Source: Mustelus asterias (taxonomy: Eukaryota). From it: DNA of 64,000 nt. How positions within the stretch are numbered: position 1 is the stretch's first letter; every line of letters begins with the position of its first letter. Below are positions 3,826 to 62,070 of this stretch, piece by piece. The notes under the pieces were generated by a model, which was not told the DNA's origin, made no database searches, and saw only the letters and a program-made list of their open reading frames with translations. The stretch covers positions 34,534,001 to 34,598,000 of the forward strand of contig NC_135808.1 of NCBI RefSeq assembly GCF_964213995.1, given 5' to 3'. Position numbers and translations under genes: made by a program.

Positions 3826-3862
3826 TTACCTGATGAAGGAGCAGCGCTCCGAAAGCTAGTGG
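3826..3862 (+). ncRNA. Minimal type I hammerhead ribozyme motif (5' pLTR of Penelope element)
   Basis: ttac-CTGATGA-a-ggagc agc gctcc-GAAA-gc-TA-gtgg: conserved core, stem II hairpin, palindromic AGCT in place of stem III, and a 4-bp stem I. Confidence 0.8.
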
Positions 3863-5819
3863 CTTTTGCTACCAAATAAACCTGTTGGACTTTAACCTAG
3901 TGTTGTTAAACTTCTTATTGTGTATAACCGAGAGGATCTCCAAGAAGATCGCGCATATCGACACAGACATCAAGTTTCTACAAACATGCAAGAAAGCAGA
4001 CAAGATACCGAAAGGACTACGGATCACGAATCCACTCAGGTCAACCTTTAACACAGACTACGCAGAGAGACTTTGCCGTCGCACCTCTCTCACCCTCCTC
4101 AAATACCTCATACACCAATGCCGCAGCCTGGAAACCAAGATCGAATCCATATTCTCAACTTGCGCTCAGGACGCAGACCAGCTGCGAAACTCTGCCAAGC
4201 AGACGAGACAAAGGAACTACACCATCTACATGCACACCAAGAACAGGAAACTTGAGAAACTCGGCATCACCACCAGTAGCAACCAAGCCTCCCCCGGCAC
4301 CACAGTAGAAAACAGTACCACTGCAGGGAAGTCCATTGTCAACTTATCGGACTACACACTTCAGCCAGATGAAATCGAAGTTCTCAGCCGAGGGCTCAAC
4401 TTTTGCCCCACTACCAAAATAGACCCCATCAGTCTCGCAGCGGACACAGAGGAATTCATCAGGCGAATGAGGCTGCGGGAGTTCTTCCACAAACCCCAAG
4501 AGCCAACAGTGAACACAATGAGACAGCTAATGAACCGGAACAGCAGACAGAGAGATCCGCAGTGCAACCGAAGAGGAAAGAGTCGAATTGGACTCCTCCG
4601 GAAGGCCGCTGCCCTCGACTTGACATGTATGCCCAAATCATCAGGAGGTGCGTCAACACCAAATTCATCAGTCGCACTCACAAGACAACACCGAACATCA
4701 CCCAAGCACAACGCAACGCCATCCACGCTCTCAAGACCAACCGCAACATTGTCATCAAACCAGCAGACAAAGGAGGGGCCATCGTCATACTGAACAGAAC
4801 GGATTACTGCAAAGAAGTGTACCGACAACTGAACAACGAGGAACACTACAGACAGTTACCCACAGATCCGACCAAAGAACACACCCGTCAACTCAACACT
4901 CTGATCAAAACCTTTGATCCGGACCTTCAGAGCACCCTCCGTGCTCTCATCCCACATACTCCACGCGTTGGAGATCTCTACTGCCTCCCAAAAATACACA
5001 AGGTAAACACACCCGGCCATCCCATCGTTTCAGGAAATGGAACCCTGTGCGAGAACCTCTCCGGCTATGTCGAGGGCATCTTGAAACCCATTGTACAAAG
5101 AACCCCCAGCTTTTGTCGCGACACTACGGACTTCCTACAGAAACTCAACACACATGGAGCAGTTGAACCAGGAGCACTCCTCGTCACAATGGATGTCTCG
5201 GCACTCTACACCAGCATCCCCCACGATTGCTGCAACGGCCTCAGTACTCAATGCCGTCAACTGCCAGTTTCCAGATGCAATTTTACAACTCATCCGCTTC
5301 ATCCTGGACTACAATATCTTCACCTTCAACAACCAGTTCTTCATCCAGACACACGGAACAGCCATGGGGACAAAATTCGCACCTCAATATGCCAACATCT
5401 TCATGCACAGGTTCGAACAAGACTTCTTCACCGCACAGGACCTTCAACCGATGCTATACACTAGATACATCAATGACATTTTCTTCCTTTGGAGTCATGG
5501 TGAGCAATCACTGAAACAACTATATGATGACATCAACAAGTTCCATCCCACCATCAGACTCACCATGGACTACTCTCCGGAATCGGTTGCATTCTTGGAC
5601 ACATGCATCTCCATTAAGGACGGTCACCTCAGCACCTCACTGTACCGCAAGCCCACGGATAACCTCATGATGCTCCACTTCTCCAGCTTCCACCCTAAAC
5701 ACGTAAAAGAAGCCATCCCCTATGGACAAGCCCTCCGAATACACAGGATCTGCTCGGATGAGGAGGATCGCAACAGACACCTCCAGACGCTGAAAGATGT
5801 CCTCATAAGAACAGGATAT

Positions 5820-6994
5820 AAGAACATAAGAACATAAGAAATAGGAGCAGGAGTAGGCCATCTGGCCCTTCGAGCCTGCCCCGCCATTCAACAAGATCAT
5901 GGCTGATCTGAAGCGAATCAGTTCCACTTACCCGCCTGCTCCCCATATCCCCTAATTCCCTTATCGATCAGAAAACTATCTACCCGTGATTTAAACATAT
6001 TCAACGAGGAAGCCTCCACCACTTCAATGGGCAGAGAATTCCAGAGATTCACTACCCTCTGAGAGAAGAAGTTCCCCCTCAACTCTGTTCTGAACCGGCC
6101 CCCCCTTATTTTGAGGCTGTGCCCTCTAGTTCTGGTTTCCCTTCTAAGTGGAAAGAATCTCTCCACCTCTACCCTATCCAGCCCCTTCATTATCTTATAT
6201 GTCTCTATAAGATCACCCCTCATCCTTCTAAACTCCAACGAGTACAGACCCAATCTGTTTAATCTCTCCTCATAAGCTACACCCCTCATCTCCGGTATCA
6301 ACCTGGTGAACCTTCTCTGCACTCCCTCCAAGGCCAATATATCCTTTCGCAAATAAGGGGACCAAAACTGCACACAGTACTCCAATTGCGGCCTCACCAG
6401 TGCCTTGTACAGTTGCAGCAAGACCTCCCTGCTTTTATATTCTATCCCCCTCGCGATAAAGGCCAACATTCCATTCGCCTTCTTGATCACCTGCTGCACC
6501 TGCAGACTGAGTTTTTGCGATTCGTGCCCAAGGACCCCCAGGTCCCTCTGCACAGTCGCACGATGTAATTTTTCTCCATTTAAATAATATTCCAATTTAC
6601 TATTATTTCTTCCAAAGTGGATAACCTCACATTTGCTAACGTTATATTCCATCTGCCAGATCCTCGCCCACTCGCTCAGCCTATCCAAATCTCTCTGCAG
6701 ACTTTCCGCGTCCTCCACGCAATTCGCTTTCCCACTCACCTTCGTGTCATCAGCAAACTTGAATACCCTAGATTCAGTCCCCTCTTCCAGATCATCTATG
6801 TAAATGGTAAACAATTGAGGCCCCAGCACCGATCCCTGCGGCACGCCACTGGTCACCAACTGCCAACCAGAAAAGCACCCATTTATCCCAACTCTCTGCT
6901 TCCTGTTAGATAGCCAATCCCCAATCCACGCCAACACCTTACCCCTAACTCCGTGTACCCCAATCTTCTGCAGCAACCTTTTGTGAGGCACCTT
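5820..6994 (-). mobile_element. 5'-truncated CR1 LINE inserted into the Penelope ORF
   Basis: Uninterrupted RT C-terminal ORF ([23 protein letters not shown]) and a (ttcttatg)n tail at 5820-5840. Confidence 0.95.
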
Positions 6995-7932
6995 GGCGCT
7001 CGACTCATCGATCAACAGTTCCGACGCGCCACAGCGAAAAACCGCACCGACCTCCTCAGAAGACAAACACGGGACACGGTGGACAGAGTACCCTTCGTCG
7101 TCCAGTACTTCCCCGGAGCGGAGAAGCTACGGCATCTCCTCCGGAGCCTTCAACATGTCATTGATGAAGACGGACATCTCGCCAAGGCCATCCCCATACC
7201 CCCACTTCTTGCCTTCAAACAACCACGCAACCTCAAACAGACCATTGTCCGCAGCAAACTAGCCAGCCTTCAGGAGAACAGTGACCACGACACCACACAA
7301 CCCTGCCACAGCAACCTCTGCAAGACGTGCCGGATCATCGACACGGATGCCATCATCTCACGTGAGAACACCATCTACCAGGTACACGGTACCTACTCTT
7401 GCAACTCGGCCAACGTTGTCTACCTGATACGCTGCAGGAAAGGATGTCCCGAGGCATGGTACATTGGGGAAACCATGCAGACGCTACGACAACGGATGAA
7501 TGAACACCGCTCGACAATCACCAGGCAAGACTGTTCTCTTCCTGTGGGGGAGCACTTCAGCAGTTACGGGCATTCAGCCTTGGATCTTCAGGTAAGCGTT
7601 TTCCAAGGCGGCCTTCACGACACACGACAGCGCAGAGTCGCTGAGCAGAAACTGATAGCCAAGTTCCGCACACATGAAAACGGCCTAAACCAGGATGTTG
7701 GATTTATGTCACATTATCAGTAACCCCCACAGCTTGCCTCCTGGGCTTGTAGAATCTCACTAGCTGTTCTGTCTGGAGACAATTACACATCTCTTTAACC
7801 TGTGTTGAATGCTCCCTCCACCCACATTGCCTGTACCTTTAAGACCTGGTTGGTTGTAGAGACTCGCATTCTAATTAGTATTCTGTAACTTGATTTCTGT
7901 GTCTGTGCCCTGTTTGAGAGCAGATATCCACT

Positions 7933-7969
7933 CCATCTGACAAAGGAGCAGTGCTCCAAAAGCTTATGG
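7933..7969 (+). ncRNA. Degenerate hammerhead motif (3' pLTR), G8 and G12 mutated
   Basis: ccat-CTGACAA-a-ggagc agt gctcc-AAAA-gc-TT-atgg. Confidence 0.7.
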
Positions 7970-8259
7970 TATTTGCTACCAAATAAACCTGTTGGACTTT
8001 AACCTGGTGTTGTGAGACTTCTTACTGTGAATAACCGATTGGCCATGGAAGCTGTGAAGAGTTGGTGACCTGAGTCAGGGTCATTTATTAATGAGAGGAG
8101 GGACTGTGGTCATTGTGTGAGTTTAATCTGGTTGGTGCTCCAGCTCTGGGATGATTGTTCCAGTCGGTTTGTTCCGGTTGGTTTGTTGTGTTTGATGATG
8201 TTTAAGTTTCTCTGGGTGAGGTGTTGTTAGTTTTAACCCTGTCTCTCTCTCACACACAG

Positions 8260-8508
8260 ATGTACACCGGGATCTCATGGTCCTGTTTGTTCAGGACGGT
8301 ATTCCCGATAAACACTGGGATGTGGAGGTGGACGGGGATGAGGTTTTCTACATGGATTTCAAACTGAAGAAGGAGGTGGCGCGGATTCCCGAGTTTAACA
8401 GCCAGGCAATACAGGGAGGAGAGGCGGGAATCTCAGCCAGTGTCGCCATCGCGAAACAGAATTTAAATGTTTGGAAGAACCGGTGGAACGGAACCGCGGA
8501 ACCGAGAG
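8260..8508 (+). CDS. DAA: MHC class II alpha chain, exon 2 (alpha1 peptide-binding domain)
   Basis: Pyrimidine tract + CAG acceptor (8257-8259) and GTGAGT donor (8509). 249 bp, phase 1/1. Translation (x)VHRDLMVLFVQDGIPDKHWDVEVDGDEVFYMDFKLKKEVARIPEF...AKQNLNVWKNRWNGTAEPR has the class II alpha1 DGDE-FY-DF motif, N69, R76 and the N78 sequon (HLA-DRA numbering), and closely resembles shark class IIA as I recall it. Confidence 0.95.
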
Positions 8509-8581
8509 GTGAGTGACCGGGTTCACCCCCCTCAGCCCCGGGCTGTGGAGCGGAGCGGAGCGGGCTGAGAGTGAGAGCAGC

Positions 8582-8662
8582 CCGGGGTCGGGGGCCTCAC
8601 TGAGCCGGGGCCGGGGGCCTCACTGAGCCGGGGTCGGGGGCCTCACTGAGCCGGGGCCGGGG
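8582..8662. repeat. GC-rich 23-bp minisatellite, about 3.5 copies
   Basis: ccggggYcgggggcctcactgag at 8582, 8605, 8628 and a partial copy at 8651. Confidence 0.9.
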
Positions 8663-8704
8663 CAGGGCCTCCCGGGGCCGGATTCAATCCCAGAGGATCT
8701 GTAT

Positions 8705-10590
8705 TTGGGATCAATCCCGGCCGCCAGTCTCCCAGGCGCTGATTTTTCGCGCAATCAGTTCGGTGCCGAAATTTGGGGCGGAGCTGATTATCATGTGGAA
8801 ATGTCAATGAAATCTTTATTTAAATTTATTCCGGAACTGAAGTGTCTGGGCCCGCTCGCCCCTCACCTCCTGCCCGCCAGGAGTGATTCACTGCAGCGGG
8901 GTTTACAACAGGGAACAAGGGGCCCAATCCCCCTGGAGTGAAGGGGGGCCATGGAGGCACCCCAGGGGGCCGGAGGTACCCCTGGGGCATTGCCAGCCTG
9001 GTACTGGGCATCTTACAATGCCAAGAGGATGAGACCAGAGGGGACGGGGCCTATTCGGGCAGAAAGAGTGAGGAGGGTGATCAGAGCTTGCCATCAAGTT
9101 GGGGTTGGAGCTGGTTAGGGAGGAGTGGGGTGCAGTGCCAAGGTGCCAGGCTGGAACTACCCAAAGGGCTCCTACCCTCAGCCTCAACGGCCTCCGGTTC
9201 TACCCGCAAGAACAACATAAGACCATAAGACATAGGAGCGGAAGTAAGGCCATTCGGCCCATCGAGTCCACTCCACCATTCAATCATGGTTGATTTCAAC
9301 TCCATTTACCCGCTCTCTCCCCATAGCCCTTAATTCCTCGAGAAATCAAGAATTTATCAATTTCTGTCTTGAAGACGCTCAACTTCTCGGCCTCCACAGC
9401 CCTCTGTGGCAATGAATTCCACAGACCCACCACTCTCTGGCTGAAGAAATTTCTCCTCATCTCTGTTCTAAAGTGACTCCCTTTTATTCTAAGGCTGTGC
9501 CCCCGCGTCCTAGTCTCCCCTGTTAATGGAAACAACTTCCCTACGTCCATCCTATCTAAGCCGTTCATTATCTTGTAAGTTTCTATCAGATCTCCCCTCA
9601 ACCTCCTAAACTCCAATGAATATAATCCCACGATCCTCAGACGTTCATCGTATGTCAGGCCTACCATTCCTGGGATCATCCGTGTGAATCTCCGCTGGAC
9701 CCGCTCCAGTGCCAGTATGTCCTTCCTGAGGTGTGGGGCCCAAAATTGCTCACAGTACTCCAAATGCGGCCTAACCAGTGCTTTATAAAGCCTCAGAAGT
9801 ACATCCCTGCTTTTGTATTCCAAGCCTCTTGAGATAAATGACAACATTACATTTGCTTTCTTAATTACGGACTCAACCTGCAAGTTTACCTTTAGAGAAT
9901 CCTGGACTAGGACTCCCAAGTCCCTTTGCACTTTAGCATTATGAATTTTGTCACCGTTTAGAAAATAGTCCATGCCTCTATTCTTTTTTCCAAAGTGTAC
10001 GACCTCGCACTTGCCCACGTTGAATTTCATCAGCCACTTCTTGGACCACTCTCCTAAACTGTCTAAATCTTTCTGCAGCCTCCCCACCTCCTCAATACTA
10101 CCTGCCCCTCCACCTATCTTTGTATCATCGGCAAACTTGGCCAGAATGCTCCCAGTCCCGTCATCTAGATCGTTAATATATAAAGAGAACAGCTGTTGGG
10201 GAACATGATTGTTCCCCATTCATGGGGAGCAGGTTTTTTCCTCGCCTGAGAGACCTGTCCCTATAAGGCCATTAAGGCAAATGAGCTCGCTAAACACATG
10301 CAAAACACTATTTAAATAAATTATTCAGCGTCTCCCCAGAAATGGGCAAGAAGCTGACCGCGCCAGAAATCCTGTTCCAGTAAGATCGCAAGAGACAAGC
10401 AATGGGGCGTGATCCTGATCTCTTGGCTCTCATGCGAGTTTACTGGCTTGCTCCACCCATCAAAAATCACTCTGCTATGCACAGAGTGTGGGAGATTCAT
10501 TCTGGTAAGTACGCTCAAAAAATGGGCGGAAATGCTCCCATTTCCCACCCATTGGGCGCTTAGTTTTGTTTTGGGAGAATCCCGGCCCTT
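8705..10590. mobile_element. GC-rich non-autonomous (Harbinger-like) DNA element, interrupted by CR1
   Basis: The right end ttgggagaatcccggccc resembles the TIRs at 14878 and 60865, and it shares the internal atttaaat and ggcattgccag motifs. The left boundary is uncertain. Confidence 0.5.
9208..10195 (-). mobile_element. 5'-truncated CR1 LINE
   Basis: ORF 9296-10219 (FADD, LEYCEQFWAP, RGHSLRI) and a short-repeat tail at 9208-9235. Confidence 0.93.
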
Positions 10591-10923
10591 GATCCCATTG
10601 GGGGTTGTAACTGGGAGCATTTCAGTGAAATGCTGAGAATTTTATCATGTTCAGTGGGGTGTCTTTGCCACAGTGATCCCAGAGATCAAACCCTATTACC
10701 ATGTGTATATAAACCATTTAAAAACTGTATTTATCCAAAATCCACTTTACAAAGAGAAAAATAGTATGCAATAATCACAAGAATTTCAATCTATAAGGTA
10801 CTCTGGTCATGTTAGCTTCAGTTGTATAGGCCACACACAAGATCACATCTGGAATATTGTGGTAAGTATTGGTCTCCTTAAATGTGTTGGAAGCAGTACA
10901 TAAAAGTTGTACAAGTTTATTAG

Positions 10924-11217
10924 TCTTTTGGCTAAGATCAAGTGTAGTATCGACATGCTGTGCTTGGTTGAAGTCATTAGGTTACATCTTAGCTTCATTT
11001 GAAGCAATGTTTAAAAGCAGCTTCTCGGCCTTTTGGCTAAGATGCAAATGAGATCAAGCCTTGGAGGAGGAGCTGTGCCTACTCCAATCAGCTTGGATCA
11101 TGTAGATCAAGACCAAGACAGGAGGTGAGAGCCCTGTCTTGTCAGCTTGGATCGGGAATGTTGCAACTTGTTGAGCGTCTGAATTGGACTTGATTTGATT
11201 GAATTGGAATTAAAAAA
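10924..11217 (+). mobile_element. U2 snRNA-derived SINE-like retroposon with 13-bp TSD
   Basis: U2 nt 14-40 at 10925-10951 and U2 nt 4-27 at 11020-11043. A-rich tail. TSD acaagtttattag (10911-10923) / acatgtttattag (11218-11230). Inserted in a decayed CR1 (about 10780-11650). Confidence 0.8.
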
Positions 11218-12044
11218 ACATGTTTATTAGCAGGAATGGACAGGTTGTTTTATGAGGAAAGATTCAAAAAGCTAGGCTGGAGTTTAGAAAAGTTTAGGTG
11301 ACTTGATCAAAATCTTTAGGTTCCTGAGGGGTACTGACAGGGTGAATGTGGAGAGGATGTCTTGTCCAAGAATGTGAGGTCACTGTTTAAAAATAAAGGG
11401 TCGCTCGTTTAAGACTGAGATGAGGATAACTTTTTTTGTCCGAGAGCCATGAGTGTCTGGAACTCTTCCTCAAAAGACAGTGGAAGCAGAATATTTGAAT
11501 ATTTCTAAGGCATAGCTAGATTCTTCACTAACAAGAGGGTGCGACAGGCAGGAATTGAGGTTACAATCAGATCAACCATGATCTTATTGAATGGTGGAGC
11601 AGGCTACTGAGAATCTCAGGGGCCAAGTGGCCTACTCCTGCTCCGAATTTGTATATGCAAATTATTGGTGGTTGCTGTACTAGGTGTTTGTACTAATCTG
11701 TTGGTGTGTTGGCGTACAGTTGACCTGAGGGACTGATGATCGTTCAATTACTTGCTCAGGTGGCAAAATCAGATCTGTCTCATAAGTTGTTTGCAGTGAA
11801 GGAGTAACTTCTCCGGTTAAGCATAGATGTTTACAGCTGCAGCAATAGATCTGATCATTCATCTTCATCATGCACGACTAACATGACAATATTTCCATTA
11901 CATTGAGACAAAAGTCCTGGGACCAATTACACCATGACACCAAAACCAGTGATCACTTGCACCATGGTACTGAATCCAGCAGCTCAGTGGCTGCTTGCGC
12001 CATAGTGCTGAATCCAGGAACTGTAGGGTCTTACAGTTTTTCTA

Positions 12045-12321
12045 GGGGCTCGGTTAGCCCAGATAGCTGGATGGCTGGTTCATGATGCAGAGCGAAGGGG
12101 GTTCAATTCTTGTATTGGCTGAAGTGTGGTGATTCTCAGGTTAAATCACCACCAGTCAACTCTTCCCCCTCAAAACTCACCTGAAGAAGGGGCTTAGAGC
12201 TCCGAAAGCTTGTGTGGCTTTTGCTACCAAATAAACCTGTTGGACTTTAACCTGGTGTTGTTAAACTTCTTGCCCTCAAAAGAGCACAGCAGCCTATAGT
12301 CACTGGGACTATGGTGGCTTT
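12045..12321 (+). mobile_element. tRNA-derived SINE (family C) hosting a hammerhead-bearing insert
   Basis: Head ggttagcccagatagctgg...ggttcaattc. Homologous to 1506-1708. Confidence 0.7.
12176..12272 (+). mobile_element. 97-bp Penelope pLTR-derived insert with hammerhead motif (12177-12215)
   Basis: tcac-CTGAAGA-a-ggggc ttaga gctcc-GAAA-gc-TT-gtgt. TSD ccctcaaaa at 12167-12175 and 12273-12281. Confidence 0.8.
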
Positions 12322-13228
12322 CACAGTTTTTATGGTTCGCAAGTTACAAGAGCACAGATGACTCTCTCAAAATGTTGTTATTTTTAATAGTTAAGTTAAT
12401 TTGTATCCATGATAACAGATTTAACATGGATACCAATTTGAAATGGATGCAGAGAAATGAAAATGGCTGCAGATAATGATTCTAGATGTAACAGGTTGAG
12501 AAAAGAAAAAAATAGCAGCAGCTTTGTTACTTAGAGCAAATTAAATGTTCACTGATACTTAACACCAGAATCTTTTCTTTATGCTTTCAAGGAATGAGAG
12601 AGTCACCGGCAAGGTCAGATTTTGTTGCCCATCCCCAATTGTCCTTGAAGTGAGCGACTTGCTCGACAATTTCAGAGGCAGTTAAGAATCAGCCAAGTTA
12701 TTTGTCTGCAGTCCATGTCGGCCAGACAAAAATTGTTCATCCTTCTTCTGCTTTCTCCAGTAATTTTCCATTATGTGAAGCCTCTTTATAGTCAATTTTC
12801 CAGGAAAAACTGTTTATATTTTGCTGGAACACCTTGTATCAATTCAAAGCCTAGTCTTCATAACCAAACCACTCGTGTCTCCTGCTGGTCTGTAATCTCT
12901 TATTTTCCTTGATGGCATTTGTGCTTTTCAAAAAATAACTGCAAAAGCAGTCCATATTCACATGCAACAAAACTTGAATAACATTCAGCCTTGGCTGACG
13001 AGAGACATTTGCAGCACCTAGGGGAGAGTGTGACAGGAGGACACTGAGACAGACAGCAGTACCTAGAGGAGAATTGTAAAGGGAATAGACAGGCGTTTCT
13101 GTGGCTGTAAATGAAACTCCAGGATGATATGTTGCCTCTCTGGTGCTGGGGACAAAGATGTCTCAGAGCAGCTGAGGACATTCTAGAGGGGGAGGGTGGA
13201 CAGCCAGTGGTCATGGTACACATTGGTA

Positions 13229-15916: not shown

Positions 15917-16018
15917 AATGTTTTGAATGGTGGGGGAGTCCAGAACTAGGGGTCATAGTTTGAGGATAGGGAGTAAACCTTTTAGGACTGAGGTAAGGAG
16001 AAATTTCTTCACCCAGAG

Positions 16019-16483: not shown

Positions 16484-16543
16484 ACCTCGAGGGTGGTGAA
16501 TGTGTGGCATTCACTACCACAGAAAATAGTTGAAGCCAAAACA

Positions 16544-29670: not shown

Positions 29671-29976
29671 TGCATTGGTCTTCACTCGAGGATATAAGTA
29701 ACATCCCCGAAATATCTGTAAATTAGGAAATCGGTTACTGTTTCTCCTGCTAACCTTTGACTCCAATGTATCTGGCTCAGATCCATTCTGACCCCATTGA
29801 ATTTTGGCTTTCCCCCAGTTCATTATTCTTACTCTGGATTGTTCCTTGCCGTTTTCCATAGCCATCCTAAACCTTGTGATACAATGATCACTGACCCTAA
29901 ATGTTCTGCTGATACTTGATCCACTTGGACCCCTCATTCTGAAAAACCAGATCCAGCAATGCTCCCTTTCTCATTG

Positions 29977-30121
29977 ATGTGGAGATGCCGGCGTTGGACT
30001 GGGGCGGGAACAGTAAGAAGTCTCACAACACCAGGTTAAAGTCCAACAGGTTTATTTGGAATCACGAGCTTTCGGAGCGCTGCTCCTTCATCAGGTGAGT
30101 GGAGAGACTTTTTACTGTACT
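29977..30121 (-). mobile_element. Penelope pLTR-derived insert with hammerhead motif (30062-30098)
   Basis: Reverse complement tcac-CTGATGA-a-ggagc agc gctcc-GAAA-gc-TC-gtga. TSD cctttctcattg at 29965-29976 and 30122-30133. Short inverted piece at the 5' end. Confidence 0.85.
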
Positions 30122-30450: not shown

Positions 30451-31025
30451 AGCACTGGAATGTTTTCCCCATTCCTAACTTTCCTGAACAATTTATATTT
30501 GGGGATATTTAATACCAAGCACTGCCCACAAGAACTGCAGAAAATCAAAGAGAAGTCCTGGTCGCAACTAACATCAAACCAGGACAGACATTCTGAGGTG
30601 CCGCCTTTCAGATGTAATGTTAAAGTGAGGTTTTTTTTTTGTAAAGTGGTCGTTAAAGGAGCTACTGAAAGAGTCAATATTTTTCCCAGCGTCTTAGTCA
30701 AGTTTATTTTTGTGCCATTAATCCAGATGAACTTCATTTTCATCTGTTTGCAGGATCTTGCTGTGTACACAACAGGTGGAAATCATTGTTTGTAAGGAAT
30801 TTGAGGATGTGCTGAGGATGAGGCTTTATAAATGTAAACTCTTTCTTTAGTTATCTCTCCACTGCATGTTGAAGTAGTCTAATTTCTGATCTGAACTGAT
30901 GGGAATTGATTATAGTCACTCATTGTATATTTTCCACACTGCACAGTCTACCTGTTATATTTTATTTATCCTGCTACATCACATTGGTTAATTGTACCCA
31001 TGCCATGTCCTTTCTCTGTTCACAG

Positions 31026-31307
31026 TTGCCCCTCAGATTGCCATGTACCCTGAAGTCTCAGTAGAATGGGGACAGCCCAACACATTGATCTGTCTGACTG
31101 ATGGATTCTTCCCTCCACGTATCACCATGAAGTTTATGAGAAACAATGAAAAACTGACTAATGGCATCAACATCACAGAGTATTATATAAAGAAGGATTA
31201 TTCCTACCAGAGATTCGCATACCTGCAATTCACCCCGAGTCCGGGAGACATGTATTCCTGTCATGTGGAACATGAGGGTCTGGAGGAGCCAGCGACTGTA
31301 TTTTGGG
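31026..31307 (+). CDS. DAA: MHC class II alpha chain, exon 3 (alpha2 Ig-C1 domain)
   Basis: ttctctgttcacag acceptor and GTTAGT donor at 31308. 282 bp, phase 1/1. Translation VAPQIAMYPEVSVEWGQPNTLICLTDGFFPP...GDMYSCHVEHEGLEEPATVFW contains both Ig cysteines and the YSCxVxH motif. Confidence 0.96.
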
Positions 31308-41000: not shown

Positions 41001-43070
41001 GATGGTTTGAGTTGTAAGGAGAGGCTGGATAGACTGGGACTTTTTTCTCTGGAGTGTAGGAAGCTGAGGGGTGATCTTATAGAGGTCTATAAAATAATGA
41101 GGGGCATAGACAAGGTAGAGAGTCAATATCTTTTCCCAAAGGTAAGGGAGTCTAAAACTAGAGGGCATAGGTTTAAGGCGAGAGGAGAGAAATACAAAAC
41201 GGTCCAGAGGAGCAATTTTTTCTCACAGAGGGTGATGAACGTCTGGAACAAGCTGCCAGAGGTAATAGTAGAGATGGGTACAATTTTGTCTTTTAAAAAG
41301 GGTTTAGACAGTTACATGGGTAAGATGTGTGTAGAAGGATGTAGGCCAAATGTGGGAAATTAGGACTAGCTTAGAGGTTTAAAAAAAAGGGGTGGCATGG
41401 ACAAGTTGGGCCGAAGGGCCTGTTTCCATGCTGTAAACATCTATAACATCTATCTATGACCTCCTTCACTATTAACCACCCTACCAATCTTGGTCTCATC
41501 AGCAAACTTGCTTATCATTCCCCACCCACCCCACTTTATCATCTATATCATTTATGTATATAACAAACAATAAGGGTCCCAGCACTGAATCTTGTGATAA
41601 GCCACTGGATACCGGCCTCCAGTCACTACCACCTATCTCTGAGCCAGTTTCGGATCTATTTTACCAAGTTCCCCTGAATTCCATGTGCTTCAACCTTCTC
41701 AATCAGTCTCCCATGTGGGACTATGTCGAAGACTTTGCTAAAATGCGTATAAACTATATCGGCTGCACTTCCCTCATCCACACACTTGGTCACATTTTCG
41801 AAAAATTCCCTCCAATTAATTTGGCATGACCTCCCTCTGAAGAAGCCATGTTGATTATCTCTGACTAACCCATGCTTTTCCAAGTGGAGATTAATTCTCT
41901 CCTTCAGAATGTTAGAACATAGAACAGTACAGCACAGAACAGGCCCTTCGGCCCACGATGTTGTGCCGAGCTTTATCTGAAACCAAGATCAAGCTATCCC
42001 ACTCCCTATCATCCTGGTGTGCTCCATATGCCTATCCAATAACCGCTTAAATGTTCCTAAAGTGTCTGACTCCACTATCACTGCAGGCAGTCCATTCCAC
42101 ACCCCAACCACTCTCTGCATAAAGAACCTACCTCTGATATCCTTCCTGTATCTCCCACCACGAACCCTATAGTTATGCCCCCTTGTAATAGCTCCATCCA
42201 CCTGAGGAAATAGTCTTTGAACGTTCACTCTATTTATCCCCTTCATCATTTTATAAACCTCTATTAAGTCTCCCCTCAGCCTCCTCCGCTCCAGAGAGAA
42301 CAGCCCTAGCTCCCTCAACCTTTCCTCATAAGACCTACATAATGTTCTTCTAGTTTTCCTACCACTGACGTGAGACTCGTGCTCTGTAATTTCATGGTTC
42401 ATCTCTAGCATCCTTCTTGAAAAGTGGAACCACATTAGCCATCTTCCAATTCTCTGGCACTTTCCCCATGTAAGAAGTCTCACAACACCAGGTTAAAGTC
42501 CAACAGGTTTATTTGGTCGCAAAATCCACTAACTTTAGGAGCGCTGCTCCTAAAAATAAATTTTGTAAATTGAGTTTGTATCAATATATGCCCTGTTTGT
42601 GAACAGAACTCTCACTTACCTGATGAAGGAGCAGCGCTCCGAAAGCTCGTGGATTTTGCTACCAAATAAACCTGTTGGACTTTAACCTGGTGTTGTTAAA
42701 CTTCTTACTATGTTTACCCCAGTCCAATGCCGGCATCTCCACATCATGACTTTCCCCATGGCCACAGAGGAATTAAAATTTTGTGTTAGAGCCCCTGCAA
42801 TTTCCTGCCTCGCCTCCGACAGCAGTCTGGAAAGCAATTCATCCGGGCCTAGGGATTTGCCAATTTTGAAGCTCGTCAGAGCCTCCAATACCTCCTCACT
42901 TCCTATGTCAAACTGTGCAAGTTTCTTACAGTCCCCTTTCCTGAATTCTGTACCTATGTTCTCCTTTTCCTGAATGAATTCATTTAACACCCTTCCAGTG
43001 TCCTGTGGCTTCACACACAGATTACTCCGTGTCTTTAATGGGCCCTACTCTTTCCCTGGTTAATCTCTTC
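38095..43070. mobile_element. Cluster of nested CR1 fragments on both strands plus a V-SINE (about 39340-39612)
   Basis: CR1 ORF2 motifs in ORFs 38029-38352(-), 38571-39267(+), 40097-41363(+), 41656-41883(-), 41989-42340(-) and 42750-43014(-). Confidence 0.85.
42471..42748 (+). mobile_element. Penelope pLTR-derived insert: inverted partial copy + direct copy with hammerhead motif (42616-42652)
   Basis: TSD actttccccatg at 42459-42470 and 42749-42760. ttac-CTGATGA-a-ggagc agc gctcc-GAAA-gc-TC-gtgg. 42471-42550 is an inverted pLTR fragment. Confidence 0.88.
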
Positions 43071-48481: not shown

Positions 48482-48489
48482 ATAGAATC

Positions 48490-52874: not shown

Positions 52875-53020
52875 AAGCTGAAGTTCCTGAGGAGAAGTCT
52901 GGTGCAGGGACAGTGATCTGTGCTCTGGGACTCGCCCTGGGGATCATCAGTGCTGTTGTAGGGATCATCCTACTGATCAAAGAGAGACAGAGGCTGCAAG
53001 CGCAGCAACACGGTATCTAG
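52875..53020 (+). CDS. DAA: MHC class II alpha chain, exon 4 (connecting peptide, TM, cytoplasmic tail, stop)
   Basis: ctctctctatacag acceptor. In frame with exon 3: EAEVPEEKSGAGTVICALGLALGIISAVVGIILLIKERQRLQAQQHGI*, with the class II alpha CxxGxxxG TM motif. TAG at 53018-53020, then a GTAAGT donor at 53023. Too short for the ORF track. Confidence 0.95.
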
Positions 53021-54300: not shown

Positions 54301-56991
54301 TTATAAGTTCAGACGGTCTGGAGGACCGCACCATCGTTGTGACCTCCTCAATACCGGCGGTGACACCGGAGTAGGTGCTTGCGGTGGCGTTCTCCCCAAA
54401 ACAGCGTCCAGCTGTTCTCCCACGGACTCACAGGCCGGTTGACCCTGATGAAATGGTAGTGCAGGGGATCCCGATACATTCTGCGATGGCGCCGATCTTC
54501 GGGGCTCAGGCAAGCTGTGCATTGGAGTAAAACTGTTAAGCACTGGTCCCGGTGCTGTCCGCGCCATGTCTGGGGGAGAAATAAGGGATAAGGGATTCGT
54601 CACTGGGGGTATGGGAGCGACAGGAGTTGCTACGTCCCCTGCAGGCGCCAGGTCTCGGATCGAGACTGTGTCCTCTCGCCCGTCAGGATATGCCACATAG
54701 GCATACTGAGGGTTGGCGTGGAGGAGGTGGACCTGTTCGACCAAGGGGTCGGACTTGCGGGCCCTTACATGTCGCCGCAGAAGGACGGGTCCTGGGTACG
54801 TCAACCAGGCTGGTAAAGATATCCCCGAGGACGACTTCCGAGGGAATGAGAACATCCTCTCGTGGGGAGTAGCATTGGTTGCCGTACACAGGAGGGAGCG
54901 AATGGAGTGAAGCGCATCAGGGAGGACCTCCTGCCAACGGGAGACTGGAAGGCCTTTGGACTTCAGCGCCAATAGGACAGCCTTCCAGACTGTAGCATTC
55001 TCTCTTTCCACCTGTCCATTGCCCCTAGGGTTGTAACTCGTGGTCCTACTAGAGGCAATCCCGTATGAGAGCAGGAATTGCCTCAAGTCATTACTCATGA
55101 ACGACGAGCCCCTGTCGCTATGGATATAGCTGGGGTACCCGAACAGGGTAAAAAGATCACGGAATGCCTTGATCACCGTGGCAGTCGACATGTCCGCGCA
55201 GGGGACAACAAACGGGAACCGGGAGTACTCATCTATTATGTTCAGAAAGTACACGTTCCGATCTGTTGAGGGAAGGGGGCCCTTAAAATCCACACTCAGC
55301 CTCTCGAAGGGGCGCATATGGTCTGGATCAGGGCCAATGACCCCGTTTTCCACCACGTATCCCAGGATGACTAACCGGCGCGTACGGAATACACACTTCT
55401 CCCTGTTGTAGGTCAAATTCAGGCGAGATGCAGTGCGTAAAAAGTTCTGGAGATTTGTGTCATGGTCCTGCTGATCACAGCCGCAGATGGTGACATTATC
55501 CAGGTACGGGAAGGTAGCCCGCAGCCTGTTCTGGTCCACCATTCGGTCCATAGCACGCTGGAAGACCGAGACCCCATTGGTGACACCAAATGGAACCCTA
55601 AGAAACTGATATAGACGACCATCCGCCTCAAAGGCCGTGTAGTGTCGGTCCTCTGGGCGAATGGGGAGTTGGTGGTAGGCGGACTTAAGGTCTATGGTGG
55701 AGAACACCCGGTACTGCGCAATCTGATTGACCATATCAGATATGCGCGGGAGGGGATACGCATCCAGCTGCGTATATCGGTTAATGGTCTGACTGTAATC
55801 AATGACCATCCAGGGTTTGTTCCCGCTCTTGACCACCACAACCTGTGCTCTCCACGGACTAACACTGGGCTGTATGATCCCTTCTTTGAGGAGTCGCTGA
55901 ACCTCAGATCTGATGAAGATCCGATCTTCAGTGCTGTAACGCCTACTTTTAGTAGCGATGGGCTTGCAGCCTGGTACCAGATTCTTGAATAAAGAGGGTG
56001 TGGTGATCTTTAATGTAGAAAGATTGCAGGCGGGGCGCTTTGGACAATTTGGAGACTGCAGCTGTTCCCCCACTGTCAGCGAAGGGAGTGGCCCACCGTA
56101 CTGTAGGATCACACTCTTCATGTGGACCATAAAGTTTAGTCCGAGGAGAATTGGTGCGCAAAGATGCGGCAACACAAGGAGCCTGAATCGCTCGTAAATT
56201 GTGCCTTGCACTTTCAAAGTTACCACACAACGTCCTAGCACAGGGACAGACCGGGACCTTGATGCCATAGAGATTGTCTGTTTGGCAGGTTGAATCTGGA
56301 GTCCACACCTCTTTACAGTGTCAGGGTGAATAAAGCTCTCAGTGCTCCTGCTGTCAAACAGACAATAAATTGCACGACCATTTACCTGTATATCCATCAT
56401 CGAACAATCAAGCCTGTGATGCTTAGCCTGGTTTAGGGTGATTGACGCCACCGTTGGTCCGTGAACGTCACTGCAGGCAGCTGAGGTCGATGCTGAGGAC
56501 CCCTGCTGGTCGCTCATGGTCATCGTCGACCAAAATGGCCGCCCCCATGAATCGCACATGGGTGAGGGCTTAAAACGTAGCGACTCCTGGTGGTCATCCT
56601 CCTCCGACTCCGTCGACCGCAATGGCGTCGTCCTGGACTCGCACGTGGACGAACCCCGTGAGTACTTTGACGACGATGGTGATGATCCCCATTCCGAAGG
56701 GTCACAGGCCGCACTGCTGTTCTTGGGCTTCGATCTGCACACCTTCGCATAATGCCCCTTTTTACCGCATAGGTTACAGACTACCGCTTTAGCGGGACAC
56801 TTTTGTCGTGGATGCTTGGCTCCTCCGCAGAAGTAGCACCGCGGGCCGCATGGGGCTGCAGCCGTCGTCTGGTCCACATGGGAGCACGCCATAACACTGC
56901 GCTTCGAGCCCGTGGGGCGAGGAGGGATTTGTGACTGCTCCTGCCACGTGGTCCTCCGGATACAGGACCAAGCTCTTCGAAGCCGCCTCAA
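54301..56991 (-). CDS. Gypsy gag C-terminus/pol: 2 CCHC knuckles, protease, RT, integrase core (RNase H absent)
   Basis: CYFCGGAKHPRQKC, CNLCGKKGHYAKVC, LFDSRSTESF, IDLKSAYHQ, VPFG, YLDN, SVDFKGP, HSDRGSSF, NGQVERENA. Confidence 0.93.
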   Translation of the reverse strand: MRRLRRAWSCIRRTTWQEQSQIPPRPTGSKRSVMACSHVDQTTAAAPCGPRCYFCGGAKHPRQKCPAKAVVCNLCGKKGHYAKVCRSKPKNSSAACDPSEWGSSPSSSKYSRGSSTCESRTTPLRSTESEEDDHQESLRFKPSPMCDSWGRPFWSTMTMSDQQGSSASTSAACSDVHGPTVASITLNQAKHHRLDCSMMDIQVNGRAIYCLFDSRSTESFIHPDTVKRCGLQIQPAKQTISMASRSRSVPVLGRCVVTLKVQGTIYERFRLLVLPHLCAPILLGLNFMVHMKSVILQYGGPLPSLTVGEQLQSPNCPKRPACNLSTLKITTPSLFKNLVPGCKPIATKSRRYSTEDRIFIRSEVQRLLKEGIIQPSVSPWRAQVVVVKSGNKPWMVIDYSQTINRYTQLDAYPLPRISDMVNQIAQYRVFSTIDLKSAYHQLPIRPEDRHYTAFEADGRLYQFLRVPFGVTNGVSVFQRAMDRMVDQNRLRATFPYLDNVTICGCDQQDHDTNLQNFLRTASRLNLTYNREKCVFRTRRLVILGYVVENGVIGPDPDHMRPFERLSVDFKGPLPSTDRNVYFLNIIDEYSRFPFVVPCADMSTATVIKAFRDLFTLFGYPSYIHSDRGSSFMSNDLRQFLLSYGIASSRTTSYNPRGNGQVERENATVWKAVLLALKSKGLPVSRWQEVLPDALHSIRSLLCTATNATPHERMFSFPRKSSSGISLPAWLTYPGPVLLRRHVRARKSDPLVEQVHLLHANPQYAYVAYPDGREDTVSIRDLAPAGDVATPVAPIPPVTNPLSLISPPDMARTAPGPVLNSFTPMHSLPEPRRSAPSQNVSGSPALPFHQGQPACESVGEQLDAVLGRTPPQAPTPVSPPVLRRSQRWCGPPDRLNL

Positions 56992-57490
56992 GCATTTCAG
57001 CTAATTCCATAGCTTGGGTCAGGTTGAGATTTCCCTTTTCTAGCAGCTTGAGACAGATGTATGAAGACCCGACCCCGGCCACAAACGCATCTCGGGCGAG
57101 GTCGTACATGCTCTGCTCAGCCGACACAGCTTTGCAGTCACAGCCCCTGGCTAGCTGCAAGAGCTCATTGGCGTAATCCTCCATGGTTTCGCCCGACTGC
57201 CGACGTCGTGTAGCGAGGAGGTAACGAGTGTGGATCTCGTTGGGAGGTTTCGTATAGCGCTTTTTTAAAAGCTCGAGGGCCCTCGGGTAAGTGGTGGCCG
57301 CACGGATCGCGAGGTAGACTGTGTCGCTTACCCTCGCATGGAGAACCCGGAGTCTGTCATCATCTGTGGTGACCGCTGCGGAGGCTGCCAGGTAATCTTC
57401 AAAACACTTCAGCCAGTGGTCGAAGATGTTAGAAGCGCCCACCGCACGTGGATCTAGCGTCAGACGTTCTGGCTTTAGGATTTGCTCCAT
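56789..57490 (-). CDS. Gypsy gag N-terminal part (frameshifted near 56945)
   Basis: FDHWLKCFEDY...RRRQSGETMEDYANEL...RDAFVAG is a typical Gypsy capsid (Q-xx-E-x-x-x-x-Y/F) motif. Confidence 0.85.
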   Translation of the reverse strand: MEQILKPERLTLDPRAVGASNIFDHWLKCFEDYLAASAAVTTDDDRLRVLHARVSDTVYLAIRAATTYPRALELLKKRYTKPPNEIHTRYLLATRRRQSGETMEDYANELLQLARGCDCKAVSAEQSMYDLARDAFVAGVGSSYICLKLLEKGNLNLTQAMELAEMLEAASKSLVLYPEDHVAGAVTNPSSPHGLEAQCYGVLPCGPDDGCSPMRPAVLLLRRSQASTTKVSR

Positions 57491-60400
57491 ACTCTCCTTT
57501 CTTTTTTTTCTTCTGTCGAGAGTTTAATGTTAGTTAATAAAATTGATGCGCATCAATTGGACACGAGGCACGAAGCTTCGGTAAAAGAAGGCTTTTATTA
57601 ACTAACAATGGAACTAACAGAACTTTAACACACTATCCCAGACTGAAGAGGTCCCACCCGAGCAGGGGGTCTTATACCTCTCCCAGGAGGCGGAGCCCGA
57701 CTGGGATGTGCCACAACAGTAACAACCACAGGTGTATCAATCCCGCCCTAACCCAACAACAACATTAGAACAACCCAACAACAACATTAGAACAATCCCA
57801 CAGTGGGAACCAACGATGGTTCACCACACCCCTCGTGCTAGCCATCACCATCCGAGGAGAAAGGCTCTCACTATCCACCCTATCTAATCCTCTGATCATC
57901 TTGTATGCCTCTATTAAGTCACCTCTTAACCTTCTTCTCTCTAACGAAAACAACCTCAAGTCCCTCAGCCTTTCCTCATAAGACCTTCCCACCATACCAG
58001 GCAATATCCTAGTAAATCTCCTCTGCACCCTTTCCAATGCTTCCACATCCTTCCTATAATGCGGTGACCAGAACTGTACGCAATACTCCAAATGCGGCCG
58101 CACCAGAGTTTTGTACAGTTACAGCATGACCTCCTGGCTCCGAAACTCAATCCCTCTACCAATAAAAGCTAACACACCGTACGCCTTCTTAACAACCCTA
58201 TCAACCTGGGTGCCAACTTTCAGGAATCTATGCACATGGACACCGAGATCTCTCTGTTCATCCACACTACCAAGTATCTTACCATTAGCCCAGTACTCTG
58301 TATTCCTGTTACTCCCTCCAAAGTGAATCACCTCACACTTTTCCACATTGAACTCCATTTGCTACCTCTCAGCCCAGCTCTGCAGCTTATCTGTGTCTTC
58401 TGTAACCTGCAACAACCTTCCACATTGTCCATAACTCCACCAACTTTAGTGTCATCCGCAAATTTACTAACCCATCCTTCTACGCCTCATCCAGGTCATT
58501 TATAAAAATGACAAACAGCAGTGGCCCCAAAACAGATCCTTGCGGTACACCACTAGTAACTGAACTCCAGGATAAACATTTCCCATCAACCACTACCCTC
58601 TGTCTTCTTACAGCTAGCCAATTCCTGATCCAAACCGCTAAACCACCCTCAATCCCATGCGTCCGTATTTTCTGCAATAGCTTACCGTGGGGAACCTTAT
58701 CAAACGCTTTACTGAAATCCATATACACCACATCAACTGCTTTAGCCTCATCCACCTCTTTGGTCACCTTCTCAAAGAACTCAATAAGGTTTGTGAGGCA
58801 TGACCTACCTTCACAAAACCGTGTTGACTATCCCTAATCAAATTGTTCCTTTCTAGATGATTATAAATCCCATCTCTTATAATCCTTTCCAAAACTTTGC
58901 CCACAACAGAAGTAAGGCTCACTGGTCTATAATTACCAGGGTTGTCTCTACTCCTCTTCTTGAACAAGGGGACAACATTTGCTATCCTCCAGTCTTCTGG
59001 CACTATTCCTGTAGACAATGACGACATAAAGATCAAAGCCAAAGGCTCTGCAATCTCCTCCCTAGCCTCCCAGAGAATCCTGGGATAAATCCCATCCGGT
59101 CCAGGGGATTTATCTATTTTCACACTTTCCAGAATTGCTAACACCTCCTCCTTATTAACCTCAATCGCGCCTAGTCCAATAGCCTGTATCTCAGTATTCT
59201 CCTCGACAACATTGTCTTTTACCTGCGTGAATACTGACAAAAAATATTCATTTAGTGCCTCTCCTATCTCTTCAGACTCCACGCACAACTTCCCACTACT
59301 GTCCTTGACTGGCCCTAATCTTACCCTCGTCATTCTTTTATTCCTGACATACCTATAGAAAGTTTTAGAGTTTTCCTTGATCCTACCTGCCAAAGACTTC
59401 TCATGTCCCCTCCTGGCTCTTCTTAACTCTCTTTTTAGGTCCATCCTGGCTAACTTGTAACTCTCAAGCACCCTAACTGAGCCTTCACGTCTCATCTTTA
59501 CATAAGTCTCCTTCTCCCTCTTCACAAGAGATTCAACTTCTTTAGTAAACCATGGTTCCCTCGCTCGGCCACTTCCTCCCTGCCTGACAGGTACATACTT
59601 ATCAAGGACACGCAGTAGCTGTTCCTTGAACAAGCTCCACATTTCAATTGTGCCCATCCCCTGCAGTTTCCTGTCCCAACCTATGCCAGCTAAATCTCAC
59701 CTAATTGCATCATCATTTCCTTTCCCCCAGCTATAACTCTTGCCCTTCGGTATATACCTATTCCTTTCCATCGCTAAAGTAAACGGAACCGAATTGTGGT
59801 CACTATCACCAAAGTGCTCACCTACCTCCAAATCTAACACCTGGTCTGGTTCATTACCCAGTACCAAATCCAATGTGGCCTCGCCTCTTGTTGGTCTATC
59901 TACATACTGTGTCAGGAAATCCTCCTGCACACATTGGACAAAAACTGACCCCTCTAAAGTACTCGAACTATAGCTTTTTCAGTCAATATTTGCAAAGTTA
60001 AAGTCCCTCATAACAACTACCCTGTTACTTTCGCTCCGATCCAGAATCATCTTTGTAATCCTTTCCTCTACATCACTGGAACTTTTCAGAGGCCTATAGA
60101 AAACTCCCAACAGGGTGACCTCTCCTTTCCTGTTTCTAACCTCAGCCCAAACTACCTCAGTAGACGAGTCCTCAAACGTCCTTTCTGCCACCGTAATACT
60201 GTCCTTGACTAACAATGCCACACCTCCCCCTCTTTTACCACCTTCCCTGTTCTTACTGAAACATCTAAACCTCGGAACCTGCAACAACCATTCCTGTCCC
60301 TGCTCTGTCCATGTCTTCAAGATAGCCACAACATCGAAGTCCCAGGTACCAACCCATGCTGCAAGTTCACCCACCTTATTCCGGATGCTCCTGGCGTTGA

Positions 60401-60864
60401 AGTAGACACACTTCAAACCGCCTTCCTGCCTGCCAGTACACTCCTGCGACTCTGAAACCTCATCCATGACCTCACTACTCTCAACCTCCTGTACACTGGA
60501 GCTACAATTCAGGTTCCCACCCCCCTGCTGAATTAGTTTAAACCCTCCCAAAGAGCATTAGCAAATCCCCCCCCCCCCCCCCCCCCAGGATATTGGTACC
60601 CTTCTGGTTCAGGTGTAGGCCATCCCTTTTGTAGAGGTCCCACCTACCCCAGAAAGGGCCCCAATTGTCCAGGTATCTGAATCCCTCCCTCCTGCACCAT
60701 CCCTGTAACCACATGTTCAATTGCTCTCTCTTCCTATTCCTCTCCTCACTATCACGTGGCACGGGTAACAAACCAGAGATAACAACTCTGTTTGTTCTAG
60801 CCCTAAGCTTCCACCCTAACTCCCTGAATTTCTGCCTTACATCCCCATCCCTTTTCCTACCTAT

Positions 60865-62070
60865 GGGGCCGATTTTACCAAATCGGCTCTAAGTGCCGGG
60901 TGCGGTCGTAAATCAGACCCGCGCCCGGCAGCCGTGCTCCAGCGCCCCCATACGCCTTTTTTCGGCGCGGGTCCAGTGAGCGGGGCCTAGCGCATTTGCA
61001 TCTGTCGGAGCACCGGACTGTGCATGCGCAGTTCGAAGCCGACAGCACTCAGCGCGCCCCAGCGCGAAAGTCAAAGGCAGCGCTGACAGCACTGCGCTGT
61101 CTTTGACTTTCCCTGGTTGGGGGCAGGGGGGCGGAGTTCGGATGTGACGTCTCTTCCCTGGGGGGAAATGTCCCATTTTCACTCCATCTGACGAAGGGGC
61201 AGCGCTCCGAAAGCTTATGGTATTTGCTACCAAATAAACCTGTTGGACTTTAACCTGGTGTTGTGAGACTTCTTACTGTGCTTACACCAGTCCAACGCCG
61301 GCATCTCCACATCATAATATCACAGGACAGGGATGGGGGGATATACATTTTGAAATATTATCCCAGATTTTGGACTGTCAGGTTTTTAGTTCCTGTGATT
61401 TGGACATTATCCTCCAAAGGGAATTCCTTTCATCCTCTCTGCTGTCTGTGCTGCTTTGCCTTTCCCGGGGGGGATCAGTCGCAGACTGGCAGTGCCCCCC
61501 CCCCCCCCCCCCCAGGTAAAGGCAGAGCAAGGCCAGAAACGTGCAGGAGGCTGTCGACGGACTGCAGATCGGAACGATGGTGGAGGGAGACCAGCGATCA
61601 AGCTTGGTCGGGGGTGTGCCTCCCAGGGGGGTCCGATCCCGGCGGGGGGGGGGTCTGCCGGCAGGGCCTGCCTCCCAGGGGGGTCCAATCGGGGAGGGGT
61701 GTGGGGGGTGATTTGTGGGGGGAGGTCCGCGAAGGATGTTCGGGGGGGATTGGCTTCGGCGGTTCCCCTGCTGAATTGGAGTCCCATTCGGACTTTTATT
61801 TAGCAGGTCGTTTAATGCGCGGACGCGAAATGGGCCGCAACCTGGTAAAGTCAGATTCGTCGGTAAAGTTGGGCGCGAGCTTCATTAAGTCGATTTAAAT
61901 GCATTTGCGCTGGCCGATTCGGACGCACGCCAGACCCGTGCCCGGATCGGCCATTGGTAAAGGCGCGATTGGCCTTGGGTCGGGTCTGGACCGCGTTTTA
62001 GGCCCGACGCCCAACTGTACCACAATTTCGTGCCCGAAGACGGGCGCGAAATTTTGGTAAAATCGGGCCC
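60865..62070. mobile_element. Harbinger-like MITE, 3-bp TSD, in CR1 ORF1
   Basis: TIRs ggggccgattttaccaaa / tttggtaaaatcgggccc (17/18). TSD TAT at 60862-60864 and 62071-62073. Confidence 0.85.
61181..61315 (+). mobile_element. Penelope pLTR-derived insert with hammerhead motif (61184-61220)
   Basis: ccat-CTGACGA-a-ggggc agc gctcc-GAAA-gc-TT-atgg followed by the shared ccaaataaacctgttggactttaacctggtgttg tail. No clear TSD. Confidence 0.82.

Follow-up and report, generated by a model that had tools for sequence, protein, structure and literature searches.

Ultraconserved intronic hammerheads of amniotes are full, conserved ribozymes that occur as single copies. Minimal hammerheads have been reported in the pseudo-LTRs (pLTRs) of Penelope-like elements (PLEs) in fish, coelacanth, Xenopus and reptiles, as described in the cited sections of Cervera and De la Pena 2014 (PMC4209133). 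A sequence-only reading of a 64,000-nucleotide stretch of shark DNA (the window) had placed seven hammerhead motifs in and around an MHC class II alpha gene and had identified them as minimal type I, dimer-dependent hammerheads on a Penelope-like element. All seven lie where it put them, with the sequences that it described, and the identification is right: it agrees with the anatomy of the RT/GIY-YIG ORF and with the published class (PMC4209133). Very probably, each motif is a minimal type I hammerhead sequence lying in a pLTR end of one very abundant shark PLE; six insertions brought them in, and these insertions likely sit in the MHC class II alpha introns as neutral passengers. As such, the finding is ordinary annotation, since both the ribozyme class and the retrotransposon class that carries it are already known. 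The fresh point is that, in one branch of the family, copies often start precisely at the RNA's predicted self-cleavage site.

The hammerhead core (C3 U4 G5 A6 N7 G8 A9, G12 A13 A14, the A15.1-U16.1 pair and H17, read as CUGANGA, GAAA and UH) is intact in five of the seven motifs, one on the reverse strand (30062) and four on the forward strand (3826, 12177, 42616 and 61184); the latter had been called core-intact and sense to the MHC gene, and both points are borne out. The core of motif 7933 is broken by the loss of G8 and G12, and motif 42526 lacks CUGANGA and has an altered G12. Because the genome holds 52,205 exact matches to the core-intact pattern and 0 to its reversed control, the motif is not a chance occurrence. 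The seven window motifs are non-independent, all being drawn from one repeat family. Sampling of 140 evenly placed 10-kb stretches of the genome yielded 118 copies (one per 11.9 kb), of which 90 were parsed, with a bias towards intact copies because a recognisable core was required. In the parsed copies, each position of the AGCU palindrome of helix III, already recognised as a palindromic stem III, is kept in 87-90 of the 90, and an extra A stands between positions 9 and 10.1 in 87. This extra A had been proposed as a new variant, whereas the cited sections of PMC4209133 already state it as a consensus feature of PLE minimal hammerheads. An Rfam scan returned no hammerhead family among its 11 matches at E up to 10, and so no curated covariance model recovered the motif; the MIR821 match is nothing but the long fold-back. 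As monomers, six of six motifs are predicted to fold no better than shuffled sequences (z -0.91 to +0.63), which lends no support beyond stem II.

Each motif occupies a fixed place in the pLTR end of the same PLE family, for which we estimate about 300,000-310,000 copies in the shark genome, 165,000 of them core-intact. Five subfamilies (A-E) were assigned in 107 of the 118 sampled copies by short diagnostic motifs rather than by a tree. In sufficiently long copies the hammerhead sits downstream of the RT/GIY-YIG ORF, and in tandem copies it sits upstream of the ORF start, at a distance of 165 bases in 9 of 29 ORF-start loci. The family has the features of an EN+ PLE: a single ORF with RT and, at the C terminus, a GIY-YIG domain (RVT_1 scores over the cut-off at one locus, L029, and under it for the pieces in the window), pLTRs at both ends in partial tandems, an inverted arm, a tail and a target duplication. 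It shares RT followed by GIY-YIG, a DKG motif, a CX2-5CxxC linker and a CCHH motif with the Neptune/Nematis-type C-terminal EN+ PLEs, as these are defined in the cited sections of PMC8557442. We therefore class the family as putatively Neptune/Nematis-type, by motifs rather than by a tree of reference elements and with Neptune and Nematis left undivided.

The gene and the insertions are listed in the table below. tblastn with named shark proteins places six of the seven motifs in introns 1-3, which confirms the intronic status earlier given to 12177 and 42616. A splice-donor-like site follows exon 4, as it does in a paralogue of the gene, and a putative last exon, 93% alike in the two paralogues, lies about 19 kb past the end of the window; the motif at 61184 is likely within a 3'-UTR intron.

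Features of the MHC class II alpha gene and of the insertions in the window
Feature	Position	Strand	Content	Target duplication
MHC class II alpha exon 2 (alpha-1 domain)	8260..8508	+	PF00993 E 1.7e-14	
MHC class II alpha exon 3 (alpha-2 domain)	31025..31307	+	C1-set E 7.5e-22	
MHC class II alpha exon 4 (connecting peptide, membrane span, tail, stop)	52875..53020	+		
Solo pLTR, subfamily A	3795..3925	+	Core-intact minimal hammerhead 3826-3862, predicted cut 3858/3859; intron 1	
5'-truncated Penelope-like element, subfamily B	3930..8030	+	Broken ORF and 3' pLTR with core-broken hammerhead 7933-7969; intron 1	8 bases
LINE-type RT fragment nested in Penelope ORF	5820..6993	-	RVT_1 E 8.4e-16; Penelope ORF resumes past junction	
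Short pLTR stub, subfamily C	12175..12271	+	Hammerhead 12177-12215 with intact core, stem II of 6 pairs and stem I of 3 pairs; predicted cut at 12211/12212; intron 2	9 bases
Short pLTR stub with tail, subfamily D	29975..30106	-	Core-intact hammerhead 30062-30098, antisense to gene; intron 2	12 bases
Single fold-back insertion	42470..42750	.	Inverted core-less arm 42470-42551 (-); on the forward arm, of subfamily A, core-intact hammerhead 42616-42652 plus tail; intron 3	12 bases
Short pLTR stub with tail, subfamily B	61180..61315	+	Core-intact hammerhead 61184-61220; likely 3'-UTR intron	none clear

The seven motifs stem from six separate insertions, four of which have their own target duplication. 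The solo pLTR abuts the long element, and the two motifs 3826 and 7933 might be taken for the pLTRs of one element; this was ruled out, as they belong to different subfamilies and are 84% alike. Since the 8-base target duplication falls between the 3826 pLTR and the ORF, that pLTR is a separate insertion. The ORF of the long element comprises RT, a zinc linker and GIY-YIG, with DKG, CX4CxxC and CCHH motifs (RVT_1 E 4.1e-5 and GIY-YIG E 4.5e-4, both below the Pfam cut-off), and its full-length relatives carry a B-type pLTR and 70 further bases. The tcac/gtga stem is not a private deletion but the state of subfamily D, found in 21 of the 118 sampled copies. Five of the six insertions are shorter than 300 bases and have no ORF, and pLTR-derived retrozymes have been reported in one chondrichthyan (bioRxiv 10.64898/2026.07.22.740005). 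On these grounds the short copies might be read as a non-autonomous retrozyme family of their own and not as Penelope ends cut short. We regard this as very improbable: the tandem arrays of a fixed non-coding, hammerhead-bearing unit that mark non-LTR retrozymes were not found in the window, the 5' ends are scattered and extend into the ORF in longer copies, and on the 3' side the copies stop at the two tail ends that PLE insertions typically show.

In the sampled copies the stems vary and keep their pairing. Of the 90 parsed copies, 83, 86 and 83 keep stem I pairs 2.1, 2.2 and 2.3 respectively, and only 57 keep pair 2.4; overall, 92.5% of cells are paired, compared with 26-45% in slid controls. 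The 2.1-1.1 pair is C-G in 44 of 71 copies and U-A in 19, the change from C-G to U-A being that of subfamily B. Among the five subfamily majorities, 0 of 14 core positions differ, and N7 and H17 do. Paired changes are thus found in helices I and II, in few independent events: stem I covariation amounts to about two changes among the five subfamilies, and the two-sided changes in stem II are single copies. The covariation first noted in stem I is accordingly real across sampled copies, but it belongs to the source elements of the subfamilies and not to these seven sites. Conservation of the core alone does not prove catalysis, because the pLTR sequence just 3' of the hammerhead is conserved as much as the core. 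We propose that selection has maintained the ribozyme in the five subfamilies' source elements, with its core fixed and its stems changed in pairs. When one tandem transcript holds two copies, these would exchange their palindromic AGCU to form helix III, the element's protein probably aiding the dimer, and the cut after GCUH would set the end of the element RNA.

The 5' ends of genomic copies bear on whether such cutting occurs. In subfamily C, to which the 12177 stub belongs, starts of copies are 2.2 to 3.5 times as frequent at the predicted cut as at adjacent bases, and about 5% of the copies start exactly there. This peak could be a genomic record of hammerhead cutting in living germ cells, with self-cleaved RNA as the insertion template, a reading that we hold tentatively, at a little less than even confidence. 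In subfamily A, 616 copies start at the cut, 787 at +4 and 26 at -4, and the comparison is confounded by fold-back junctions, which dominate the controls; in an unbiased but small sample of 30 truncated copies, spanning about 40 positions, 3 start at 0 or -1, with no clear peak. Both results would suit a motif that is a relic, non-cutting even in source elements and conserved through pLTR promoter function or protein binding, the 5' ends piling up by transcription start or junction preference. The high conservation of flanking pLTR sequence and the location of PLE promoters in the pLTR (PMC6765202) point the same way, and of the 100 cut-site starts listed, 32 follow AAA, which could be fold-back microhomology, and 39 follow G (hand count; P=0.11). 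However, variation falls only at N7, H17, loop II and paired stem positions, as a hammerhead permits, H17 is G in just 1 of 90 copies, and the peak coincides with precisely the base that the fold predicts. We consider a relic unlikely.

Once inserted, copies would decay unconstrained and would cut host pre-mRNA rarely if ever. The sequence-only reading had proposed instead that pairing in cis between sense copies in the introns could cleave the intron RNA co-transcriptionally; such cleavage of MHC II alpha pre-mRNA would tune expression. Four core-intact copies are indeed sense to the gene, three of them certainly intronic; PLE minimal hammerheads cut weakly as dimers, according to the cited sections of PMC4209133, and one subfamily may cut in vivo. 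Yet the intact sense partners are 8.35, 30.4 and 18.6 kb apart with an exon between each, so that 12177 has its nearest partner 8.35 kb off, and the four-pair helix III is worth only -2.5 kcal/mol. The fold-back is predicted to form a hairpin (-135.8 kcal/mol) in which the hammerhead of 42616 is buried, its stem II, GAAA region and cut site all being paired to the inverted twin. In the cited sections of PMC11167929, an anole PLE hammerhead remains uncut without the element's protein, with zero reads ending at its cut.

The genomic setting likewise argues against cutting in cis. Enrichment in the MHC gene was ruled out: the window contains seven copies against 5.4 expected from the genome background (P=0.32), four exact core-intact matches against 1.3 expected (P=0.07), and the inferred gene carries one copy per 12.9 kb. 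Over the two paralogues, 7 copies are sense and 6 antisense, a count (n=13) that is blind to weak selection. No insertion is common to the gene and its paralogue, whose six copies lie at other places and whose sequence matching the 8031 junction has no pLTR. The C11.1-G12 CpG is changed in 18 of 88 copies and the tail CpGs in 22 of 92 (P=0.60), a neutral-like decay; the G12 CpG has nevertheless been changed less often than the loop-II CpG (18 of 88 versus 24 of 54, P=0.004), which counts against a neutral reading, although the loop-II site probably also differs between source elements. The conserved position, strand bias and protection from decay of a domesticated intronic ribozyme were thus not found at this locus, and cis-cutting of the MHC intron RNA seems extremely improbable.

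The link between the motifs and MHC II alpha looks incidental, with no sign of an immune role, and it serves as a caution that seven copies per 64 kb are no more than the genome background. With an estimated 165,000 intact copies spread over five subfamilies, the family is a resource for testing whether PLE hammerheads cut in vivo, a question open in published work, and could also show whether active sense copies are under-represented in introns. If the subfamily C peak does reflect cutting in vivo, it would answer whether weak, dimer-dependent ribozymes act there, and tens of thousands of intact intronic copies, the MHC ones included, would be possible cut sites given element RNA or protein.

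Compared with the minimal hammerheads in the cited sections of PMC4209133, the shark motifs are likewise type I without loop III, with palindromic 15.2-16.2, an extra nucleotide between 9 and 10.1, a G10.1-C11.1 pair and a helix I of 4-5 pairs, and they too are mostly single dispersed copies in families with compensatory changes. They differ in a helix II of 5-6 pairs, and the main text of that paper names no sharks; the estimate of 165,000 intact copies far exceeds the 4,000-9,000 given there, by different counting methods. Like the amniote ultraconserved hammerheads, for example that in the RECK intron (cited sections of PMC6155905), shark copies can be intronic and on the sense strand; unlike them, they are minimal, repetitive and unshared even between two paralogues. 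With the anole Poseidon element PAc and rotifer PLE insertions, in the cited sections of PMC11167929 and PMC3846280, they share a pLTR hammerhead, an optional 30-40 base tail, an inverted pLTR arm and target duplications of 8-12 bases. In the shark element, about 120 bases separate the hammerhead from the likely ATG downstream of it, whereas in PAc the two overlap, and in contrast to PAc, whose RNA-seq has no ends at the cut in the cited sections of PMC11167929, the genomic copies of shark subfamily C peak at the cut.

All seven hammerhead motifs claimed by the sequence-only reading are present as written in the window. The whole core is intact in five; G8 and G12 are gone from the copy at 7933, and that at 42526 is a 5′-truncated arm without CUGANGA. 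Because the same 60–100-base sequence continues from all seven motifs, with a mutual likeness of 80–96%, they are copies of one repeat. When six copies were folded singly, all formed stem II and two also showed stem I in the minimum-energy structure, but no copy folded better than shuffles. An Rfam search returned no hammerhead match for the window motifs, which we infer reflects the missing helix III.

The carrier is a Penelope-like element (PLE). The copy at 42616 and its 30 best genomic relatives have a common 3′ end, and the 5′ reach of these relatives varies from 60 to >1000 bases, into one reverse transcriptase and GIY-YIG ORF. Target duplications of 8–12 bases surround four of six window insertions. 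Copies 42526 and 42616 are the two arms of a single fold-back insertion; rotifer PLEs are reported with this arrangement too (PMC3846280). Every copy of the hammerhead-bearing pseudo-LTR (pLTR) has an AATAAA signal ~15–20 bases past the predicted cut; in sense intronic copies, this signal could affect the host more than the ribozyme does.

One core-intact pattern matched the genome 52,205 times (control, 0). A sample of 140 evenly spaced 10-kb stretches (1.4 Mb) contained 118 copies, or 1 per 11.9 kb, which extrapolates to about 310,000 copies, both estimates being drawn from chromosome-scale contigs only; in 63 of the 118 the core is intact and stem I has three pairs. The seven window copies are as expected (mean 5.4, P = 0.32), and the exact core-intact pattern is mildly high (4 versus a mean of 1.3, P = 0.07).

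Covariation was assessed on 91 copies (6 from the window and 85 of 90 parsed, the five with indels or truncated cores being left out; 71 distinct), in which 92.5% of cells pair, versus 26–45% when slid. The signal comes from two stem I pairs, 2.1–1.1 (C-G 44, U-A 19) and 2.4–1.4 (C-G 19, U-A 17, U-G 13, unpaired 22). Subfamilies (A–E) were assigned for 107 of the 118 sampled copies and 88 were compared: the 2.1–1.1 swap occurs in subfamily B alone, and subfamilies C and E lack pairing at 2.4–1.4, the fourth pair. Stem I pairing is therefore kept through sequence changes, as had been proposed, but the covariation comes down to roughly two compensatory changes, which took place in source elements. 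None of 14 core positions differs between subfamilies, whereas N7 and H17 do. Of 88 copies, 18 show a changed C11.1–G12 CpG, as against 22 of 92 for CpGs in the tail (P = 0.60); judged from these sequences, the core appears to decay freely once inserted. Opposing this, the loop-II CpG is changed more often than C11.1–G12 (24 of 54, P = 0.004), an excess that is probably due in part to differences between source elements. Stem II variants with other letters and loop lengths, pairing kept, occur in subfamily C and at L151:1347-1393 (minus strand), another stretch of the genome, and suggest further minor subfamilies.

The host gene encodes an MHC class II alpha chain; the named proteins most similar to it come from sharks, the top one being labelled Mustelus asterias. 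The placement of exons 2–4 and the upstream leader puts six copies in introns.

Exon map of the MHC class II alpha gene (window positions)
Feature	Position
Leader	about 7 kb upstream of window
Exon 2	8260-8508
Exon 3	31025-31307
Exon 4	52875-53020

Another complete MHC class II alpha gene lies 274 kb upstream (G000:C8:34249878-34321500), with alpha-1 exons 85% identical in protein and widely different intron repeat content. In both paralogues a donor-like site follows the stop codon, and ~30 kb further on is a mostly non-repetitive block, 93% alike in both, with an acceptor-like site and ATTAAA. This block is a putative last exon, in which case copy 61184 would be intronic too. The paralogue holds six copies, all at other places, and its sequence at the 8031 junction contains no pLTR. 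The two genes together show no strand bias (7 sense copies among 13, P = 1.0), and the density over the window gene, as inferred, is 1 copy per 12.9 kb.

Copy 3826 resembles a 5′ pLTR belonging to the intron-1 element, a reading that was rejected because the copy is of another subfamily and lies outside that element's target duplication; PLEs are said to insert beside older copies (PMC6765202, accessible text). At 3922–3934 two subfamilies abut at one site, and in intron 1 of both paralogues (L063–L064 in the second) independent Penelope insertions lie between the same flanks, making site re-use possible. Intron 3 contains a C-rich 24-base minisatellite (45200–46868, about 64 copies) and, inverted relative to it, a short G-rich array (44708–44857; whole region 44700–46870). 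An LTR-retroelement gag/pol remnant lies past the stop codon (54304–57523, minus strand; zinc knuckle, protease, RT and integrase by Pfam). Two short stretches at 10912–11110 are similar to U2 snRNA at its 5′ end (E 0.1); they may represent a U2 fragment or the site of a U2-targeting element.

Some insertions elsewhere in the genome start at the predicted cut. With three non-matching bases demanded before the start, subfamily C gave 1169 starts at the cut, 369 at −1 and 352 at −2; a narrower pattern that catches subfamily A too gave 339 at +1. Normalised values for the cut, −1, −2 and +1 were 2849, 853, 813 and 1272, and starts at the cut represent about 4.7% of subfamily C. AAA precedes 32 of 100 cut-site starts listed, and these may reflect microhomology; a capped start at the cut base would be expected to give the same pattern. 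As further points against a derivation from cleavage, the test for subfamily A was confounded, and an unbiased sample, in which 3 of 30 truncated copies start at 0 or −1, shows no clear peak. None of the seven window copies starts at the cut. Genome-wide, 2443 very short palindromic insertions have arms meeting ≤30 bases from the T-run after the cut; by hand count, 14 of the first 50 have an arm starting at the cut base (2 ambiguous). Our literature search, which mostly excluded subscription papers, found no paper on insertions starting at the cut or on shark PLE hammerheads, although the PMC4209133 supplements may include sharks. Retrozymes are reported in one chondrichthyan (2026 preprint, bioRxiv 10.64898/2026.07.22.740005, accessible text); a review (PMC6155905) was also consulted.

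Cleavage of MHC intron RNA by pairing in cis, as had been envisaged, is not borne out: gaps of 8.35, 30.4 and 18.6 kb separate the intact sense copies, helix III between copies is computed at −2.5 kcal/mol, and copy 42616 is predicted to be locked in a −135.8 kcal/mol hairpin. Regulatory cutting of the MHC pre-mRNA by intronic copies is very improbable, and the MHC link looks incidental. Published motifs of this type show no activity as monomers and weak activity as dimers; their consensus features already include the palindrome and an extra nucleotide (PMC4209133), so the extra A is not a new variant. In the accessible text of PMC11167929, the anole PLE hammerhead requires the element's protein, is dispensable for in vitro insertion and leaves no ends in RNA-seq. 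Taken with the monomer and dimer activities, these findings suggest that the hammerhead's likely place of action is the tandem transcript of the element itself. Of 29 other loci retrieved with the start of the ORF, 9 carry a hammerhead 165 bases upstream of it, matching the partial-tandem layout of PLEs.
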